Part shown: positions 3,146 to 33,068 of the stretch, piece after piece
How positions within the stretch are numbered: position 1 is the first letter of the stretch
Layout of the letters: each line of letters opens with the position of its first letter
Assembly (NCBI RefSeq): GCF_006345805.1
Contig: NW_021836046.1
Span: 1 to 33,068, forward strand
Direction of reading: 5' to 3'
Length of the DNA: 33,068 bases
DNA from: Octopus sinensis
Taxonomy: Eukaryota
Notes under the pieces: generated by a model
Told to the model about the DNA's origin: nothing
The model's input: the letters and a program-made list of their open reading frames with translations, nothing else
The model's database searches: none
Made by a program: the position numbers and the translations under genes

Positions 3146-3649
3146 GGATCTTTTCGGTTTGAACGGCAGTTTTTTCTAGCGGTGTTATATGAAATTGTCA
3201 CCCATAATTATGACCCTAGAATCGATCTATTGCATTTCAATCTCTTTTAGGGTTAGGGTTAGAGTTAGGGTTAGGGTTAGAGGTGGGGGGAAAGGGTATT
3301 TTTTTTTTCTTCACAAATGTAAATTAACCCAATCTGATTCTTAAGCGAGGGACATATTCATACGGCACAGAATTCTTTTTGACTCAATAGACGTCACTGT
3401 TTCGTTGAAATTGTAGAAATTAGGCAGGAACAAAAAAAAAATTAAAGGTGGGTGCCAGATAAAATAACAGTACAGTACCAATAATAATGGAGGCACAGAA
3501 ACAACAAATATCTTACAAACTATAGAATTTTCTCAATAAAGCCAAGAGAAAAAGATGTTTTATAACCACATTCTACCAGTATACGAAGTTAAAAATTTTT
3601 AGTTACCTAGAAATTATGTTAAAAACTGCCGTTCAAACCGAAAAGATCC
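3146..3649. mobile_element. MITE with 29-bp TIRs and 8-bp TSD (Merlin-like), containing TTAGGG repeats
   Basis: TIR ggatcttttcggtttgaacggcagttttt / aaaaactgccgttcaaaccgaaaagatcc. TSD aacttatt at 3138-3145 and 3650-3657. GG...CC termini. Confidence 0.9.
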
Positions 3650-4752: not shown

Positions 4753-5130
4753 AGGCAGCGAGCTGACAGAAACGTTAGCACGCCGTATTACGTTCTGAGT
4801 TCAAATTCCGCCGAGGTCGACTTTACCCTTCATCCTTTCGGGTTCGATAAATTAAGTACCAGTTACGCACTGGGGTCGATATAATCGACTTAATTCGTTG
4901 GTCTGTCCTTGTTTGCCCCCTCTATGCTTAGCCCCTTGTGGGCAGTAGAGAAATATATATACATATATACGACGGGCTTCCTTCAGTTTCCGTCTACCAA
5001 ATCTACTCAAAAGGCTTTGGTCGGCCCGAGGCTATAGTAGAAGACACTTGCCCAAGGTGCCACGCAGTGGGACAAAACCCGGAACCATGTGGTTGGTAAG
5101 CAAGCTACTTACCACAGAGCCATTCCTACA
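4438..5130 (-). mobile_element. SINE family A copy interrupted in its (TA)n by a family C SINE
   Basis: Both halves match family A. The minus strand carries the CORE-like ccttgggcaagtg. Confidence 0.9.
4752..4954 (+). mobile_element. SINE family C (Meta-domain-like), internally deleted head
   Basis: ggcagcgagctg...cttcatcctttcgggttcgataaattaagtaccag...agccccttgtggg. Confidence 0.9.
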
Positions 5131-8700: not shown

Positions 8701-8733
8701 AATGATAACGTCTGTAGCTGTATTATGTTAATA

Positions 8734-8972
8734 CTTATTTCTTTATTACCCACAAGGGGCTAAACACAGAGGGGACAAACAAGGACAGACAGACGGATTA
8801 AGTCGATTATATCGATCCCAGTGCGTAACTGGTACTTAATTTACCGACCCCGAAAGGAGGAAAGGCAAAGTCGACCTTGGCGGAAATTGAACTCACAACG
8901 TAACGGCAGACGAAATACCGCTCGGCATTTCGCCCGATGTGCTAACGATTCTGCCAGCTCGCCGCCTTACAT
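8734..8972 (-). mobile_element. SINE family C full copy
   Basis: 13-bp TSD tattatgttaata at 8721-8733 and 8973-8985. Confidence 0.92.
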
Positions 8973-9014
8973 TATTATGTTAATAATATCGACAAAGTTA
9001 AAATCAACAATGTG

Positions 9015-9183
9015 CAGTTCTATATTTAAGAGATGAGGAATTATGTGCATTATTTACATATGCCAACGGATATATGGCGTAGTGGCTAAGAGCGCGGGGC
9101 TACTAACCTCAAGATTCCGAGTTCGATTCCAGCACTGTCCTAAATAATAATAATAATATAATAATAATAATAATAATAATAAT
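9015..9183 (+). mobile_element. SINE family D: inverted 3' terminus (9015-9073), tRNA-like head (9074-9141), (AAT)n
   Basis: Head matches 28272-28336. 9015-9073 is the reverse complement of 28675-28738. Confidence 0.85.
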
Positions 9184-9309: not shown

Positions 9310-9870
<561 letters not shown>

Positions 9871-15588: not shown

Positions 15589-15778
15589 GTTATATATATA
15601 TATATATAATATATATATAACATAGGACTAAAGTAAAGCCATTTGAATATGGCTAGGGACAGGGCAGGGTGGTGGGGGTGTTACTGTTGCATTTAGCCCC
15701 AGGCGAACATCGACGTCGCCAGATAGGCTTGACACCATCACGGTGTCCTTAACCTGCAAAGGGAGATAATTCCCCGAT

Positions 15779-15852
15779 GAAGCGGAAACCACACACGGAC
15801 CATGGTTTCAAGGTGTATTGCCTATCATCAACGTGTGGTAGGCCCCCGCTTC
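15779..15852 (-). ncRNA. Type I hammerhead ribozyme motif (U3 variant)
   Basis: Minus strand: cacacg UUGAUGA u-agg-caauaca-ccu-u GAAA CCAUGG UC^ cgugug. Stem I is extended by gaagcgg/ccgcuuc. Confidence 0.75.
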
Positions 15853-16153
15853 CTCGACGAAATCTCACTCTGCAGGATATTCATATATAATTTTCAAGCA
15901 AAATACATTTGCTGATTTCGAAATCTGTTCGACAGCAATAATATTACTGGCTAAAAATGCAACAGTACACCCCACCACCCTGCCCTGTTCCTAGCCATAT
16001 CAAATGGCTTTAGTCCCTTATGTTATGGAGCAGTACTGTCTATATCTCATTTAGAGAATTATTATTGCTGTCGAACAGATTTTCGAAATCAGCAAATGTA
16101 TTTTGCTTGAAAATCTCTAATATGAATATCCTGCAGATTGAGATTTCGTCGAG

Positions 16154-16226
16154 GAAGCGGGAGCCTACCACACGTTGATGATAGGCAATACACCTTGAAA
16201 CCATGGTCCTGTGTGGTTTCCGCTTC
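16154..16226 (+). ncRNA. Type I hammerhead ribozyme motif (U3 variant)
   Basis: ccacacg (16168-74), TTGATGA (16175-81), stem II, GAAA (16197-200), CCATGG, TC^ (16208), ctgtgtgg. Confidence 0.72.
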
Positions 16227-16780
16227 ATCGGGGAATTATCTCCCTTTGCAGGTTAAAGGACACCTTGATGGTGTCAAGCCTATCTGGCGACGTCGATGTT
16301 CGCCTGGGGCTAAATGCAACAGTAACACCACCCTGCCCTGTCCCTCGCCATATTCAAATGGCTTTAGTCCCTTATGTTATGGAGCAGTTACTGTCTATAT
16401 CTCATTTAGAGAATTATTATTGCTATATATATATATATATATATATACATGCACACACACGTACGTACACACACTCATACATACATACATACATGCATAC
16501 ATACATACAAACATACATATTAATTAGTTTTGAAAATATCTTAATATGAAACCCGATGATTTTGTACTTTTCAAAGGGTTATTACACTTATAAATAACAC
16601 ACGCAATTGTTTTTGTTTATTTCGGTTTAATTGCTAACTAGATTAATCAATTAAGTATTGACAAGCTAATCAATACGTAATTAATTGATTAACATATTAG
16701 TTTTGCTAGAAAATCATGTAAACGTCAGCAAGTTCTTCGTTTTAATTGCAAACTAATTTTCCCAATATAAACTACACACA

Positions 16781-18599: not shown

Positions 18600-19960
18600 A
18601 TTCGGAGAGGAAGGATATATGCACCAGGGTATCATTGAAAGAGATAAGATGAACTAACACAAGATGAAAAAAATGCGCCGGAAAGGGTGTTTGAGGAGAA
18701 CTCGGTTTGTGCTCCAAAGCTAAATGGTCGCTATAAGATTAGACCAATTATCATGTGGGCGGTGGCTTTGATGAAATATGGGGCAGGAATAGTATCTTGG
18801 AAGAAGGATGAGTTGCAAGAGATAGACCGGAGAACACGTAAATTAATGACAAGGAACAAGGAACTACACCCCAAGAGTGATGTGTCATAGTTGTATGTAA
18901 AGAGGAAGGTCGGGCGGGGATTGCTGTGTTGTGAAGTTTGTTTAACCCTTTTGTTACTGCATTTATTTTGAGATGCTCTGAGTTTCTTTCAATTATTTTA
19001 AATATTACAAAGAATTTAGTAAAATAACTTAGTTATCATTAAGTTAGTGTTAGGAACATTAATTGTGACTAAGGTTTGGTGGAAGATTTTATTCAAAACT
19101 TATGAAAACAAGACATTTGTACTGAAAGCCAGAGCCGGTTTCAGCCGGGTTGGTATCAAAAGGGTTGGGAAGAGAAGAATAGCGTGGCTTGGTATGTCAA
19201 GGGGAGTAAAGAAGAAATGACTGAAGCAGGGAAAATGCAGGGAACCTTAAAAGTCTACGAAGCTGTAGATCCAAAGCAATTCAAGAAAGACCAGAGTTAG
19301 CAGATGAAGAAAATTTGGCAGGACAAGAAAATGCACAGTCAGTTCTTGAAGAATAAAGATGAAATTGATTGGAATAGAACCCGGCAATGGCTGAAAAAAG
19401 GAGACTTAAAAGGGCCCGTTGAGGCATTAGTGTGCAGCGCTCAATAACAAGCTCTCAGAACAAACTACTCAAAATATATCACATTGATAAAAGCACTGAC
19501 TCGCCACTGTGTGGGATGTGCTCTGAGAAGGGAGAAGGTATAAGCTATATTGTTAGTGAGCGCTGTAAGCTCGCACTACGTGAATACAAAAGGAGACGCG
19601 AAAATGTGACCAGATATGTCCACTGGCTCTTGTACGGTAAAGCAAATCTCGAGAGAGCTGAACAATGGTATGAACACAAACCAGAGGTAGTAATGGAAAA
19701 TGAACATTAGAAAATACTCTGGGATTTTAACATGACATGCGACTAAGTCATAGAGGTGAGACGACCAGATATCGTGCTGATCCATAAAGATGAAAAAGGA
19801 GTAATGATAATAGATGTTGCAACACCAGGCGATTCGAGGCTGAAATGTAAAGAAACAGAAAAGATTGAGAAATACCAACCACTGCGGGACAAGATAGGAA
19901 AGTTATGGGGCATATGGAAAGTAATGGTGATACCGGTGGTAAATTGAGCTTGGGTATTAT
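18600..19960 (+). pseudogene. R4/Dong-clade non-LTR retrotransposon fragment (RT thumb, CCHC knuckle, restriction-like endonuclease)
   Basis: KLNGRYKI..WAVALMKYGAGIVSWKKDELQEIDRRTRKLMT..LHPKSDV, then PLCGMC, ILWDF and RRPDIVLIHKDEKGVMIIDVATPGD..EKIEKY. Stops and frameshifts present. Confidence 0.88.
18946..19164. mobile_element. piggyBac-like MITE nested in the LINE
   Basis: TTAA|cccttttgttac ... gtatcaaaaggg|tt. Right TSD imperfect (ttgg). Confidence 0.75.
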
Positions 19961-24219: not shown

Positions 24220-24948
24220 TTAAAATCCATTTCTAACAAGTACATTATAGGCACAAAAACTAAGAATTCATACAAAAAGGCTTTGTTCGGTCTAATCTAT
24301 TTTTCTTTCTGTGTGTGATAGCGTATTTTAGGCACGACCTTTGTAGAAATTTGATGATTATATTTCAGCTATGCAGCAGCAACGTGAACAATGGAGAAAA
24401 TTCGCTGCATTAATACCTATTCAGGGCCTATTTTATGTATTAGCTGATCAATTCAATCAATGGTCGATAATGGCGGATCAATTGAAAGAGCAACCATAAC
24501 TAGCCTGTAGTAACAAGGTCAATACGAAGACAAACGAACGAAAAAAAATAGAAGAAAGAATGAAAGCTAATGGTTTTCATTGAAAATAGTAACCGGTCTT
24601 CCTTTAACTCATTTACGCAATATTACAGTATTCTTTTAAACATGGCATTACGTCAACATATGAATACTCACAGACACGCACAACCCTTCGTAATAAAAAT
24701 GAAACCAAAATTGGAACAGAGAAACCAATAAGCACAACAATACAATCTATAAAGATCACGCAGTCATCATCTTCAACGTGATGTTGGCGTAGGGCAGGAG
24801 GTGCACTGGCTCTACATTATTTCATTTTGGACTCGGTTATATAAACTGAGTTCAAATACTACTGGGGTTGATTTTATCTATAATCGAAAAAAAATATATA
24901 TTTAACAAATAATCAGGCATTGCATCGACTATATTTTCCATAATAACA

Positions 24949-25180
24949 GGCGGCGAGCTGGCAGACACGTTAGCGCGCCGGGCGAAATGCGTAGCAGTAT
25001 TTCGTCTGCCGTTACATTCTGAGTTCAAATTCCGCCGAGGTCGACTTTGCCTTTCATCCTTTCGGGATCGATAAATTTCGTACCAGTTTCCCACTGGGGT
25101 CGATGTAATCGATTTAATCCATTTGCCTGTCCTTGTTTGTCCCCTCTGTGCTTAGCCCCTTGTGGGTAATAAAGAAACAT
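24949..25180 (+). mobile_element. SINE family C full copy
   Basis: 18-bp TSD atat(t/c)ttccataataaca at 24931-24948 and 25181-25198. Confidence 0.93.
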
Positions 25181-25445: not shown

Positions 25446-25670
25446 CGAGCTGGCAGACACGTTAGCGCGCCCGGCGAAATGCTTAGCGGTATTTCGTCTG
25501 CCGTTACGTTCTGAGTTCAAATTCCGCCGAGGTCGAGTTTGCTTTTCATCCTTTCGGGGTCGATAGATAAAGTACCAGTTTCGCACTGGGGTCGATGTAA
25601 TCGACTTAATACCTTTGTCTGTCCTTGTTTGTCCCCTCTATGTTTAGCCCTTGTGGGCAATAAAGAAATA
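25446..25670 (+). mobile_element. SINE family C copy
   Basis: Matches 24949-25180. Confidence 0.92.
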
Positions 25671-26334: not shown

Positions 26335-26797
26335 TAAGGGTTCACACTTGCAGAATCGTTACCACGTCGGACAAAAAGTGCTTGGCAATATTTTGTCCGT
26401 CTACTGGTTCTGATTTCAAACGTCGCTAAGACCATCTTCGTCTTTCAACTTTTCAAGTGCAGTAAAATAAATACCTATTTCTTTACTACCCACAAGGGGC
26501 TAAACACAGAGGGGACAAGCAAGGACAAACAAACGGATTAAGTCGATTACATCGACCCCAGTGCGTAACTGGTACTTAATTTATCGACTCCAAAAGGATG
26601 AAAGGCAAAGTCGACCTCGGCGGAATTTGAACTCAGAACGTAGCGGCAGACGAAATACTGCTAAGCATTTCGCCCGGCGTGCTAACGTTTCTGCCGCAAT
26701 AAAATAAATACCAGTTGTGTACTGGGGTCGATGTGATCGACTAGCTTCCCCTCCCCTAAAATTTTTACGTCCTGTACCTATAGTATAAAGGATTATT
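26335..26797 (+). mobile_element. Old family C variant SINE split by a younger copy
   Basis: Halves at 26335-26475 and 26700-26797. Confidence 0.7.
26476..26699 (-). mobile_element. SINE family C young copy
   Basis: 13-bp TSD taaaataaatacc at 26463-26475 and 26700-26712. Confidence 0.9.
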
Positions 26798-28150: not shown

Positions 28151-28271
28151 CACTCAGTCTCCTCTGAAAATTTTCGAACAGATGACAAATAGACGAAGGA
28201 GAGAAATGAGAGCTGACTGCTCCTAATCACTAAGCCACGCCACTTCATCCCCATACAACATAGAAACAATA

Positions 28272-28466
28272 TGGCGCAGTGGTTAAGAGCGCGAGTTACT
28301 AACCCAAAGATTCGGAGTTCGATTCCAGGTAGTGACTTATTATTATTATTATTAAAGTCAAACAACTGACAAGCAAATCTGTGGCATTGAGCAAAATATT
28401 TGCTGTAGCCCATTTTTATTATTATTATTATTACTATTATCACTATTATTATTATTATTACTATTA

Positions 28467-28518
<52 letters not shown>

Positions 28519-28738
28519 CATCATCATCATCATCATCATCATTATTATTATTATAACATCGAAAAATACCTCAGGAATGAGAACACAGGTCCGAAATTTC
28601 CCCAAGACACCTGATGAAGGCTGGAGGGTATATCAGCCGAAACGTTGTGTTGACAACAAACAAGATGAGGACAAATATCCGTCAAATGTAAATAGTGTAA
28701 ATAATGTACATAATTCCCCATCTCTTAAATATAGAACT
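28272..28738 (+). mobile_element. SINE family D: tRNA-like head, microsatellite, HHR-containing tail
   Basis: A box tggcgcagtgg, B box gagttcgattcc, (TTA)n, tail at 28553-28738. Confidence 0.8.
28606..28651 (+). ncRNA. Minimal type I hammerhead ribozyme motif
   Basis: gacac CTGATGA a ggctgg-agggtata-tcagcc GAAA CGTT^ gtgtt. Palindromic AACGTT stem III. Confidence 0.8.
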
Positions 28739-28829
28739 ATAAAAAACAATACAGATTGGTATGGAATCTATTAGCATACTCTGTAATTAAAGATTCGAAA
28801 TAACCGTGTAGATAAGTAAAGCGCTAGAG

Positions 28830-31318
28830 CAGTCATGGGCATCCTGTGGCCCACGAAGATTTCTGAATGGCTCACCTAAATTTGAAACGAAAAAAATTGC
28901 CATCGTCAGACAACTGTATAATTTTCAAAGTGCCTCAGAGTCGATCCACAGCAATCCAAATATTCAAGACCGTATTGATTTAATGTTCAATTTCTGATTC
29001 CAATGTTTATAATGACTTGTGATAGTTCAGCGACTGTCAACACACGTGATATTCGTGTAACGTTGTCAAGCAGGATTAATGGAATTTTCAAAGAATTAGT
29101 GTGCAAAATGCTGTGTTTTTTTTTTTTGGGAATTTTAATTTTTGATGTCTAAGCTAATGGCTTTATTCCCAAAAAAAGAATGATTTCCGAAGAAATGAGA
29201 ACATTCCAGGAAAGCTGGACAAATGATTATTTATTTCATGACGTAAAAAACAAAACAATATGTTTAGTATGTCTCCACTTTATGCAGCGAGCTGGCAGAA
29301 ACGTTAGCACGCCGGTCGAACTGCGTAGCCGTATTTCGTCTGCCGTTACGTTCTGAGTTCGAATTCCACCGAGGTTGACCTGGCCTTTCATCCTTTCGGG
29401 GTCGATAATTTAAGTACCAGTTACGCACTGGGGTCGATATAATCGACTTAATCCGTGTGTCTGTCTTTGTTTGTTCTCTCTGTGTTTAGCCCCTTGTGGG
29501 TAGTAAAGCAATAAGTAATTCGTCTGTCGTAACGTTCTGAGTTCAAATTCTGCCGAGGTCAACCTGGCCTTTCATCCTTTCGGGATCGATAAATTAAGTA
29601 CCAGTTACGCACTGGGGTTGATGTAATCGACTTAATCCCTTTGTCTGTCCTTGCTTGTCTCCTCTATGTTTAGCCCCTTGTGGGCAATAAAGAAATATAT
29701 TTTAATGCGTAGCCGTATGAAGGCAGCGAGCTGGCAGAAACGTTAGCACGCCGGGCGAAATGCGTAGCCGTATTTCGTCTTAGAAGAACTTGAATCAGAG
29801 TATGGTAACCTTGTTTACTACTGTGCAGCTCGTTGGCTAAGTAAGGGGAAGATGTTTCGACGATTTTATAGCCTGCGAGAAGAGGTGTGTACCTTCTTAG
29901 AAAAAAAGGGTAAATTTGTTCCGGAGCTGAAAAATGATAACTGGATTTGTGAACTTGCATTCCTCGTGGAGATAATAACACATTTAAATGATTTAAATTT
30001 AAAATTGCAAAAGCAAAATCAGTTAATCCATGAGATGTATTCCCATGTCAAAGCTTTTCAAGCAAAACTTCAAATTTAGGAGAATCAACTCAGGATTGGT
30101 GATGCTTTTCATTTCCCCATTCGCGGGTCAACATCTAGATATGATGATTTTGCTGCAGAGCTTAAATGACCTGAAAAAATTGAACTGAACACCAGATTTA
30201 ATGACTTTAATCTTTTCAGAAATTTCTTTAACGCTGATGGGGAAAAAGTTCGGAAGGAATTGCAAATGGATCTAATTGAGTTTTCAGAGTGATGAATTCC
30301 TTCGGCAAAAATTTAAAGAGGAATCATTTAATGCATTTTTATATGGAACTCTACCCGAAGAAAACTGCTTGAAATTAGTGTGCTTTGCTAGAAGATATAC
30401 CACCATGTTTGTTAGTACGTATAAATGCGAACAACTCTTTTCTAGAACGAAAATAATAAAGTCGAGAACCAGGTCAGGATTGACTGATATTCATCTGGAA
30501 GGCAACTTACGAGTCGCAACATCGCAAATTCTTGTAAACATTGAGAAACTCACAGAAAATGCACAATACCAGGTTTCTCATTAAAATTAGTAAATTATTC
30601 CTATTAACATCAATAACAAATGGCTGATAAATACGATTTTATTTGTCTGTATTTTGTTAAGCATGGTGTGTGGCGTAGTCGAACTATTTTCATCGTCTGT
30701 ACTGCTCTATTTTATTCTTTTGTTATACTTCAGGTAAATTAATTTGTTTTTCAAATTCTTTCCTTTTTTCTATTTTTTAGTTTCTTTCCTTTATCATAGA
30801 TAGATAACGCGTAATGTTAAATGCACATATCTTAATTCTTTTTAATTGTTTGTTTACATCTTTTAAGCATTTTCCCTAAGTACAATAGCTTGAAACGGTT
30901 CGACTGAACCACATACGTAACAATGACTAAGTACTATATTTCTTGAATTTTGCAACCTTTCGTTGAAAGTAAGGTTTTCGGTATTTAAAAATATTGGCGG
31001 ATATTTACATGTTTTGTTCCAAAAACAAAACGTTCATAATAATTCTTTTCTCCGGAGAAATATTTTTGGCGCTAATTAACATATCAGAATAATAAAATCT
31101 ACGATGAAATGTAAATAAAACCTTTCTGATGTTTTTACCTCAACTTTTCATTTGTAATTTATGTTTCTATCATAAACAACATGCACGAATTCTGGAAAAA
31201 ATAGATCAGAACAACCTGAGTTACCACTCTTTTTTAATGTGGGCACGAATGTAAATTAGCGCTTGCGGCCCGCTTAATTATGAGACATATCTCATGCAAG
31301 AAAGGTTGCCCATGTCTG
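28830..31318 (+). mobile_element. hAT (Charlie/SPIN/GTF2IRD2-like) transposon, decayed
   Basis: TIRs cagtcatgggcatcct / aggttgcccatgtctg. 8-bp TSD cgctagag/tgctagag. RWLSKGK, LAFLVEIITHLNDLNLKLQ and STYKCEQLFS..RSGLTD motifs at 29782-30584. Confidence 0.93.
29284..29780 (+). mobile_element. Cluster of family C SINEs (full, partial tandem, head) inside the hAT ORF
   Basis: Units at 29284-29514, 29515-29696 and 29721-29780. Confidence 0.9.
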
Positions 31319-31460: not shown

Positions 31461-31902
31461 TAGGCGGCGAGCTGGCATTAAGGCGGCGAGCTGGCAGAAA
31501 CGTTAGCACGCCGGGCGAAATGCTTAGTCGGTATTTCGTCTGCGTTACGTTGTGAGTTCAAATTCCGCCGAGGTCGGCTTTGCCTTTCATCCTTTCGCGG
31601 TCGATAAATTAAGTACCAGTTACGCACTGGGGTCGATGTAATCGACTTAATACCTATGTCTGTCCTTGTTTGTCCCCTCTGTGTTTAGCCCCTTGTGGGT
31701 AATAAAGAAATAGAAATAGGTATTTCGTCTGCCGTTACGTTCTGAGTTCAAATTCCACCGAGGTCGACTTTGCCTTTCATCCTTTCGCGGTCGATAAATT
31801 AAGTACCAGTTACGCACTGGGGTCGATGTAATTGACTTAATCTGTTTGTCTGTCCTTGTTTGTCCTCTCTGTGTTTAGCCCCTTGTGGGTAATAAAGAAA
31901 TA
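31461..31902 (+). mobile_element. Family C SINE with partial tandem duplication, single insertion
   Basis: 15-bp TSD ggtagat(c/g)tattttg at 31446-31460 and 31903-31917. Confidence 0.92.
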
Positions 31903-32387
31903 GGTAGATGTATTTTGAAATAGAAACAGAACCATCCCCACGCGACGTAATTAATCTTCTAGCGTGACGTCATCGCGATGGATACATAACACGCTGTCGC
32001 AGCACAGATTTTCAAGTAATTACAGAACCAACTGCTAATAACAAAACAACACTTCATTAGATATCAACCATATGGATAATTAACATACATTAATAATTGA
32101 GAAACGTTAATTAGTGAAAGAAAACAGTGTTGCTAATAATACAAGCTATATTGAAAGTGAGCGGCGAATGGTTATTCAGTTACGGGTAATATACGTGCGG
32201 GTTGGTAAAGTAGATAATCTCGGATATGGGGTTGGGGTTTTGAGGGTGCGCAGATGTATGAGGCAGGATTCAGTTACTCTGTTCTTGTGATATCTATGAT
32301 GAAGAATATGATAGTAGTGTGTTGGCTGCAGTATAGAGACGTATTACTCACGAACGAGGATACTTTGGCAGCATACTCTATGCACTG

Positions 32388-32698: not shown

Positions 32699-32830
32699 AC
32701 ATTTTTTCGGCCATCTCAGAAACGTCTGAACCACTCGTACACTTGTAGGCGACTCATACACTCCTCTCCATAAACTTTCTGCAAATTTGCGTCGGCCTCT
32801 GAGAAGATATCGCCATCAAAACTTTCATTG
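32698..32830 (-). pseudogene. mariner transposase N-terminal HTH fragment
   Basis: NLQKVYGEECMSRLQVYEWFRRF*DGR. Confidence 0.8.
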
Positions 32831-33068
32831 CGACAATCACACGCTACACATGTTCCTTCCGGGCACTGCTGTAAACAGCAGAAGAGCGCTACAACATTAA
32901 AACATATAATGTATATATATATATATATACAATTTGTATATGCCACAATTTGTATATGTCTTTGCATATGGGTATGTGTGTGTGATTGTATATATGTTAA
33001 TGTTTTATATAAATATATACATTCATATCTATTTACCTATGTAACTAAGTATCTATCTATCTATCTAT

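Follow-up and report, generated by a model that had tools for sequence, protein, structure and literature searches.

SINEs are defined as parasites of LINEs. Which enzyme, then, moves a short octopus element whose tRNA-like head is preceded by an inverted copy of its family's 3' terminus? The element occupies positions 9016–9183 of a 33,068-nt stretch of Octopus sinensis DNA (contig NW_021836046.1), hereafter the window, which was analysed at its full length. An initial annotation of the window took the inverted segment as independent evidence for mobilisation by Penelope-like element (PLE) rather than LINE machinery. That assignment is probably right, but it is reached through a hammerhead ribozyme and through other copies of the family; the argument from this locus is incomplete, as LINE twin priming fits it too. 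We consider it likely that the family is a Pol III-headed, non-autonomous octopus element mobilised by PLE. Family-level features carry this reading, and the single locus at 9016–9183 contributes a modest part of the case.

The inverted segment itself was correctly identified in the initial annotation, which had described 9015–9073 as the reverse complement of the family end. In a self-search of the window, 9016–9058 agrees with the reverse complement of 28696–28738 at 41 of 43 nt (E 6e-15), and the match to the tail at 28.7 kb runs on imperfectly as far as 9073. Positions 9016–9058 thus hold, on the minus strand, the long form of the family 3' terminus, including an optional tail of ~30 nt, with the 3' end facing outward to the left. 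Both the self-search and a sliding local alignment found this to be the only second copy of the 28696–28738 end in the window. The last 8 nt of the inverted segment (9066–9073, minus strand) match the reverse complement of 28675–28682 at all eight positions; this 8-mer occurs at just these two sites in the whole window, and by a hand estimate the probability of such a match by chance is ~3e-4. Between the two matching blocks lie 7 nt here and 13 nt in the 28.7-kb copy, a discrepancy due mostly to one extra 9-nt repeat unit in the latter, which is missing from the O. bimaculoides record P0001. Compared with a two-unit tail, the junction segment at 9059–9065, which was assigned to neither strand, carries roughly one substitution and an insertion of 3 nt. 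The same 7 nt are also a 6/7 inverted copy of positions 9075–9081 in the head, giving a short junction hairpin; a match this good was reached by 1481 of 200,000 random 7-mers, in a test picked after the match had been seen.

The tRNA-derived head follows at 9068–9142 on the plus strand, with an A box at 9075–9085, a B box at 9121–9129 and no T-run of four or more. It is identical at 53 of 61 positions to the head at 28269–28328, the window's one other head of this kind. Its resemblance to the Rfam tRNA model is weak (13.5 bits, E 3.6, under the gathering score), and ARAGORN found no tRNA at the head. The inverted segment had been said to abut the head directly. A head-to-head junction is indeed present, but the two parts overlap. 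Counted from 9072, the first position homologous to the other head, the overlap is 2 nt; with tRNA position 1 placed at 9068, where the weak Rfam alignment begins, it is 6 nt. Judged from the sequence, this overlap of 2–6 nt at 9066–9073 reads as microhomology at the inversion junction.

Downstream of the head, a plus-strand (AAT)14 linker spans 9143–9183, and there the element ends, lacking a forward ribozyme, a forward tail and a target-site duplication (TSD). Apart from the separate copy at 28.3–28.7 kb, no forward ribozyme or tail was found downstream of 9183 in the window, sliding local alignment placed the pre-ribozyme and ribozyme segments at that copy alone, and no TSD for 9016–9183 was found at the three possible right ends tried. 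The annotated inversion of the element's "own" 3' terminus is therefore half correct: the inverted piece is a 3' terminus of the family, but this copy has no forward 3' terminus. Read on the minus strand, 9016–9183 consists of an inverted 5' part from the linker, a deleted middle and a forward 3' end.

An inverted segment at the 5' end is, as the initial annotation held, a published feature of PLEs. Their insertions often carry an inverted, 5'-truncated copy beside the 5' end, which generates inverted repeats around the unit (PMC8557442), and the inverted copies are described as mostly head-to-head with palindromic junctions (PMC3846280). The octopus locus shares the outward-facing 3' end and the head-to-head junction. 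In the published cases, however, the inverted segment flanks a forward copy, which is missing here. Because no forward 3' end comes after (AAT)n, 9016–9183 does not have the terminal inverted repeats that PLEs typically form.

Within the window, the family that combines this head and tail has two members only, 9016–9183 and a full-length copy at 28269–28738. The head of the latter (28269–28337, plus strand) has its A box at 28272–28282 and its B box at 28317–28325, so that A and B boxes are intact at tRNA spacing in both copies. The plus-strand linker microsatellite at 28338–28554 is composed of (TTA)n/(ATC)n instead of (AAT)n and is interrupted at about 28355–28411 by an unrelated piece of ~57 nt, which carries the only T5 run. 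The (TTA)n and the (AAT)n of 9143–9183 run in opposite strand senses, and the foreign piece is found nowhere else in the window. Head and tail contain no Pol III terminator and no T4 run. The pLTR-like 3' module, or tail, takes up 184 nt on the plus strand (28555–28738) and has relatives, as translations, in P0001, P0002 and 27 more records. Its final part, 28706–28738, is a putative optional extension lying between a short and a long 3' end, as judged from 29 own-family records. The 3' end at 28738 is without a poly(A) or simple-repeat tail. A frame that begins in the ribozyme core (28614–28738) stays open to the 3' end save for two stops inside the 9-nt repeat units; it could be the N-terminus of the partner PLE, although by itself it is not significant. 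Terminal repeats of PLEs are reported to include the ORF start (PMC11167929, PMC3846280).

The full-length copy is flanked by a candidate TSD of 8 nt, with its left copy at 28264–28271 and its right copy at 28744–28751 (both plus strand), 5 nt beyond the 3' end. The candidate encloses both head and tail. Shared runs of at least 8 nt arose by chance in 0.5% (any flank) to 1.05% (GC-matched) of 20,000 draws, but this is one match among nine junction pairs tried and is weak once all nine are counted. Among the tested junctions, the insert pair gave simple repeat only and no TSD. The initial annotation had proposed the absence of standard TSDs as a test for PLE involvement. That test does not distinguish PLE from LINE insertions, since TSDs of 8–10 bp are reported for PLEs (PMC3846280) and the full copy has its 8-nt candidate. 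Separately, we discarded the possibility that terminal inverted repeats at 9016 and 28738 delimit a 19.7-kb unit, since the flanks share only 6 nt, offset from the junction.

The 3' module of the full-length copy contains a minimal type-I hammerhead ribozyme motif at 28606–28651 (plus strand), with its core at 28611 and a predicted cut after 28646. Stem I has 5 bp, and stem II has 6 bp, opening with G10.1-C11.1 and preceded by a bulged base; the stem III loop is absent, and positions 15.2/16.2 are palindromic. The motif shares the features listed for minimal hammerheads in the terminal repeats of metazoan PLEs, namely a long stem II, a short stem I, a bulge at 9/10.1, G10.1-C11.1 and the palindromic 15.2/16.2 (PMC4209133). 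A generic minimal-hammerhead scan, whose descriptor was composed after the site had been seen, matched only here in the window and in none of 200 window shuffles or 5000 local shuffles. Searched against the window, the full copy and the 76-nt motif, Rfam hammerhead models gave no match, which we read as a limit of these models for a motif lacking stem III, and not as support. In minimum free energy folding of six segments, the ribozyme was unremarkable (z −0.18).

The distance from the ribozyme to the end of the element also has a counterpart. The long 3' end at 28738 lies 92 nt beyond the predicted cut. In an anole PLE the cut falls at +26 and reverse transcription starts at +111–118, that is, 85–92 nt apart, and both DNA strands are cut and extended, with ATT preferred (PMC11167929). 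The same report describes insertion in vitro as independent of ribozyme cleavage. As anole insertion proceeds without need for cleavage, the hammerhead motif would mark ancestry more than use.

Further copies of the tail were found as chance translations. A phmmer search for chance ORF calls, with the open frame at 28556–28738 as query, gave 85 matches at E ≤0.001, which were sorted by pattern and by eye into 28 of the element's own family, 54 of a sister family, 2 unrelated records (P0017 and P0065, set aside) and 1 unassigned record (P0080). Adding P0002 to the 28 phmmer matches gives the own-family set of 29 records. Such translations have protein-level resolution and are biased toward frames starting at an internal ATG. 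P0001 (O. bimaculoides UniRef A0A0L8FV75) is 81% identical to the tail translation across 89% of the query; for P0002, which is isoform X2 of O. sinensis LOC115224785, the identity is 89% and the coverage 59%. Residues 1–35 of P0002, a cysteine-rich, receptor-like gene model, correspond to the translated ribozyme part of the repeat at 89% identity; this N-terminus may be either an exonisation or an annotation artefact. The sister family has the ribozyme and the downstream segment in common with the own family. Two exact-pattern scans of GTDB genomes and blastn searches of phages and plasmids found no outside DNA copies.

These records define two 3' ends. Nine of the 29 own-family records end at 28705–28714 and then continue into unrelated sequence, and six end at 28738; one more is long after a frameshift, and the other 13 are uninformative (7 stop by ORF end, 6 early). 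At protein-level resolution, the two ends are ~25–33 nt apart, resembling the optional 30–40-bp tail of PLEs (PMC8557442, PMC11167929). Two fixed 3' ends ~30 nt apart are described as PLE-specific (PMC11167929). No N- or I-run comes after any of the 15 informative 3' ends, indicating that the microsatellite is internal to the element and not its target. We accordingly rejected insertion of the tail into (AAT)n targets, as no informative 3' end continues into such a run.

Inverted copies recur among the same records. A reverse-frame tail lies N-terminal of a forward tail in 9 of the 85 matches and C-terminal of it in none, the reverse-frame match being reached in at most 1 of 200 shuffles. Two of these nine head-to-head records belong to the own family (P0014 and P0039) and seven to the sister family. 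In P0014, the reversed 3' end is followed by the ribozyme-to-end segment in forward orientation; judged from its translation, this would be the classical terminal-inverted-repeat form of PLEs, which twin priming could not make. In P0039, the order is an inverted module, a frame match to the B-box part of the head, an I-run linker and a forward module. The head match covers 7 residues, with 5 of 7 identical, and was reached in 8 of 2000 shuffles against a background of 15 in 1026, so that P0039 apparently retains a head remnant. The initial annotation had suggested counting the fraction of copies with an inverted tail upstream of the head. The outcome is mixed: only six of the 29 own-family records have at least 10 residues upstream, and while P0014 and P0039 are inverted, the other four of these six informative records show neither head nor inversion.

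The link between head and tail was pursued in the same material. Scanning all matches for head translations gave no strong match, a position-restricted test gave P0039 alone, and a search of reverse reading frames for head–tail contiguity in other copies produced no candidate. The link therefore comes from the two window loci plus one degenerate record (P0039). Head-to-tail tandems occur in 15 of the 85 matches, all in the sister family, with units of 120–129 nt wherever measured (12 records, of which 10 have 129 nt), and in none of the 29 own-family records. The ~129-nt sister tandems, like the seven sister inversions, are absent from the window and may be retrozyme-like or pLTR tandems.

The reading of the family as PLE-mobilised stays well supported by the hammerhead, the two 3' ends, the inverted relatives and the sister tandems. 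Of the alternatives, the one that survives best, though it is unlikely, holds that the element is not a SINE; head, linker and ribozyme would together make up the terminal pLTR or 3' UTR of some longer autonomous element with a tRNA-like segment, and both loci would be 5'-truncated. Only two heads were seen as DNA, and P0010, with what we take to be LINE-like coding sequence upstream, was counted in favour of this explanation. Most PLE hammerheads are described as single motifs from truncated PLEs (PMC4209133), and solo pLTRs are reported (PMC3846280). Nevertheless, in both copies the start lies no more than 4 nt from the tRNA 5' end, and nothing further upstream is shared. The intact A and B boxes at tRNA spacing, and a head and tail free of Pol III terminators, also argue against a longer element.

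It is likewise improbable that the family is a LINE-dependent SINE, in which the 3' module would be a PLE relic, a LINE (Dong-R4, RTE, CR1 or Tx1) would do the mobilising and 9016–9183 would be twin-primed inside (AAT)n. In L1 twin priming, an inverted 5' part is joined to a forward 3' part as the cDNAs anneal at short complementarity (PMC2912911). This is exactly how the locus is laid out; microhomology is present at its junction, and its 3' end is not duplicated. By itself, then, 9016–9183 is not diagnostic of PLE, because LINE twin priming yields identical geometry. LINEs are also abundant and recently active in O. vulgaris (PMC13282606), and the full copy has a TSD candidate. Twin priming cannot, however, duplicate the 3' module, which P0014 and P0039 have in both orientations. 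Additionally, L1-mobilised SINEs are very seldom found inverted (1 of 5554 Alu and 4 of 477 SVA copies; PMC2912911), so the inverted layout favours a non-L1-like enzyme, without proving it. Further points against a LINE are the 3' end without a poly(A) or simple-repeat tail, the pair of fixed 3' ends described as PLE-specific (PMC11167929) and the lack of a flanking TSD at the inverted locus. Host content does not decide the matter, since PLEs account for 6.83% of the O. vulgaris genome in 190 families (PMC13282606 supplement) and Dong-R4, RTE and CR1 LINEs are abundant there too (PMC13282606, PMC8967140).

We give very little weight to two independent insertions side by side, a simple head-plus-(AAT)n SINE and a truncated PLE-derived fragment, which the initial annotation had itself named as the case that would overturn it. 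Repeats are dense around the locus, and the linker is (AAT)n at 9143 against (TTA)n plus foreign sequence in the other copy. Under random placement, however, the chance that the sole extra tail piece in the window lies next to a head is ~0.0006–0.002 (clustering of insertions would raise it), and the two parts overlap by 2–6 nt at the junction. Neither piece has its own TSD, the rest of the interrupted tail is absent, and head and tail also occur together at 28.3–28.7 kb and probably in P0039. The low chance of adjacency, the lack of separate TSDs and the missing tail remainder together make two insertions unlikely. A later rearrangement or an assembly error in this microsatellite-rich stretch is just as improbable; there are several long AAT arrays after the locus, assemblies are known to struggle with PLE structures (PMC8557442) and such an event could still account for the missing forward tail, but the sequence at the inversion junction is non-repetitive, the window contains no N and inverted forms recur elsewhere.

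Returning to mobilisation by PLE, the anatomy of the copies, the ribozyme motif, the two ends and the inverted and tandem forms that recur in relatives are observed, and from them we infer how transcription, cleavage, the partner enzyme and the order of events might fit together. The element would comprise a tRNA-derived Pol III head, a triplet microsatellite linker and a 3' module that was taken from, or mimics, the pseudo-LTR of an endonuclease-positive PLE. Its RNA would be made by Pol III, as the A and B boxes and the lack of terminators suggest. A PLE RT/GIY-YIG protein would bind the 3' module and nick both strands of AT-rich DNA, and cDNA would start at one of two internal sites to give the two 3' ends, by analogy with the anole PLE. 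If both DNA ends served as primers, two cDNAs could meet head-to-head and be joined by microhomology. The locus at 9016–9183 would have arisen in this way, from the joining of the head to a 58-nt cDNA that started at the long 3' end. Its missing forward module might reflect priming of the second end inside the (AAT)n linker or a later deletion, which we rate about equal. On this model the family would work like a non-autonomous PLE with a SINE head. We give roughly even odds to the full proposal of a widespread octopus tRNA-promoter SINE family that is partnered with a PLE and not a LINE, that has a ribozyme, a two-terminus tail and inverted insertions, and in which 9016–9183 arose by two-end priming with the second primer internal on (AAT)n.

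No ORF or pLTR of a partner PLE was found in the window. Neither locus contains an ORF for RT plus GIY-YIG, and Pfam searches of 10 of the 109 listed frames found none. The window is otherwise repeat-rich, with 73 tandem-repeat rows, several dispersed families and transposase remnants. An abundant SINE-like family of ~230 nt is present at 4788–4954, 8721–8979, 24948–25177, 25446–25670, 26469–26695, 29284–29780 and 31479–31916; two of these loci are partial tandems with periods of 184 and 190 nt, and one copy sits 40 nt to the left of the 9016–9183 locus. Between two (AAT)n arrays, 134 nt at 9455–9588 are bounded by a perfect 14-nt inverted repeat (9455–9468 and 9575–9588) and look MITE-like. 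A long inverted repeat at 15634–16366 is 88% identical over about 750 aligned columns, with more internal copies to 16423. Decayed non-LTR retrotransposon coding sequence with the look of a restriction-like endonuclease type occupies 18648–19960; it is presumably Dong/R4-like, Pfam gave no match in two of its frames, and it does not end in a tRNA-like head. DNA-transposon remnants lie at 74–526, 30276–30581 and 32719–33036, with DDE_1 (E 3.7e-6), hAT dimerisation (E 0.004) and mariner HTH (E 6e-5) domains, the latter two below cut-off. A short interstitial (TTAGGG)n-like run is found at 3247–3282.

If the reading as a PLE-mobilised family is true, a tRNA-headed family using a telomerase-related PLE RT would widen the definition of a SINE. 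The ~185-nt 3' module would also be a natural minimal substrate for the poorly understood PLE insertion cycle, and many genomic copies would show how often the tail is used, how often inversion and internal priming occur and how long the TSDs are. The reading would bear on octopus annotation as well, in which 1279 SINE families are unclassified (PMC13282606 supplement).

How does the family compare with known systems? It is short, non-coding, dispersed and multi-copy (two window loci, plus the tail in 29 outside records). tRNA-derived SINEs, including OK, OR1 and OR2 of octopus, have the same kind of tRNA head with A and B boxes, measure ~0.3–0.5 kb and are dispersed; the element departs from them in lacking a poly(A) or simple-repeat 3' tail. 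The octopus SINEs OK, OR1 and OR2 were reportedly described by Ohshima and Okada in 1994. We presume that this work may already describe the family of head and ribozyme-bearing tail as a plain SINE. Searches of the literature, with Repbase, Dfam, SINEBase and subscription journals outside their scope, found no description of a tRNA-headed, PLE-mobilised SINE or of the octopus family itself, which may well be catalogued already. According to published accounts, SINE tails derive from LINEs and are recognised by them (PMC4824008), whereas the tail of the octopus family is of PLE type; mollusc SINE papers attribute tails to LINEs (PMC4758252, PMC4824008). In the giant squid genome, 235 hammerheads are reported, none linked to SINEs in that description (PMC6962438). 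The tRNA-bearing non-autonomous LTR elements Helenus and Ajax provide a precedent, as described, for small-RNA-derived parts on a non-LINE retroelement, but they use LTR machinery, and the word "Penelope" is absent from the text (PMC10886601).

The closest known systems are schistosome Sm-alpha and the non-LTR retrozymes. Sm-alpha and Sj-alpha of Schistosoma are short non-coding retroposons in which a Pol III promoter is followed by a type-I hammerhead, the same combination as in the octopus family (PMC6765202). They are often tandem, and the description names no partner RT (PMC6765202); the long-known hammerheads of S. mansoni are reported as canonical (PMC4209133). Unlike Sm-alpha, the octopus family has the minimal PLE-type motif and a microsatellite linker; its copies are single and dispersed, they end at either of two 3' termini, and some insertions appear to be inverted head-to-head. 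Non-LTR retrozymes and related PLE derivatives (Xenopus retrozymes, Chlamydomonas MRC1 and the short Penelopes of Heliconius) are short, non-coding and pLTR-related and are proposed to use PLE enzymes (bioRxiv 10.64898/2026.07.22.740005, PMC7229834, PMC8557442, PMC6685494). Retrozymes, like the octopus family, have type-I hammerheads (bioRxiv 10.64898/2026.07.22.740005). A tRNA head does not appear in the descriptions of these elements that were consulted, and retrozymes are defined by tandem units with complete hammerheads and by circular RNA, whereas the window holds a single hammerhead and the octopus family is non-tandem in all 29 records, tandem forms being confined to its sister family.

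Endonuclease-positive PLEs (Penelope/Poseidon, Neptune, Nematis, Hydra) are described with the same minimal hammerhead, the ~30-nt optional tail and a similar distance from ribozyme to end (PMC4209133, PMC8557442, PMC11167929). Their insertions include head-to-head inverted truncated copies, as those of the octopus family appear to, and TSDs of 8–10 bp can accompany them (PMC8557442, PMC3846280). The octopus family differs from them in having no ORF and in carrying a Pol III head. A Pol III promoter joined to a hammerhead and non-autonomous pLTR derivatives are each already known, and it is the partnership of a SINE with a PLE that would be new to the literature searched.
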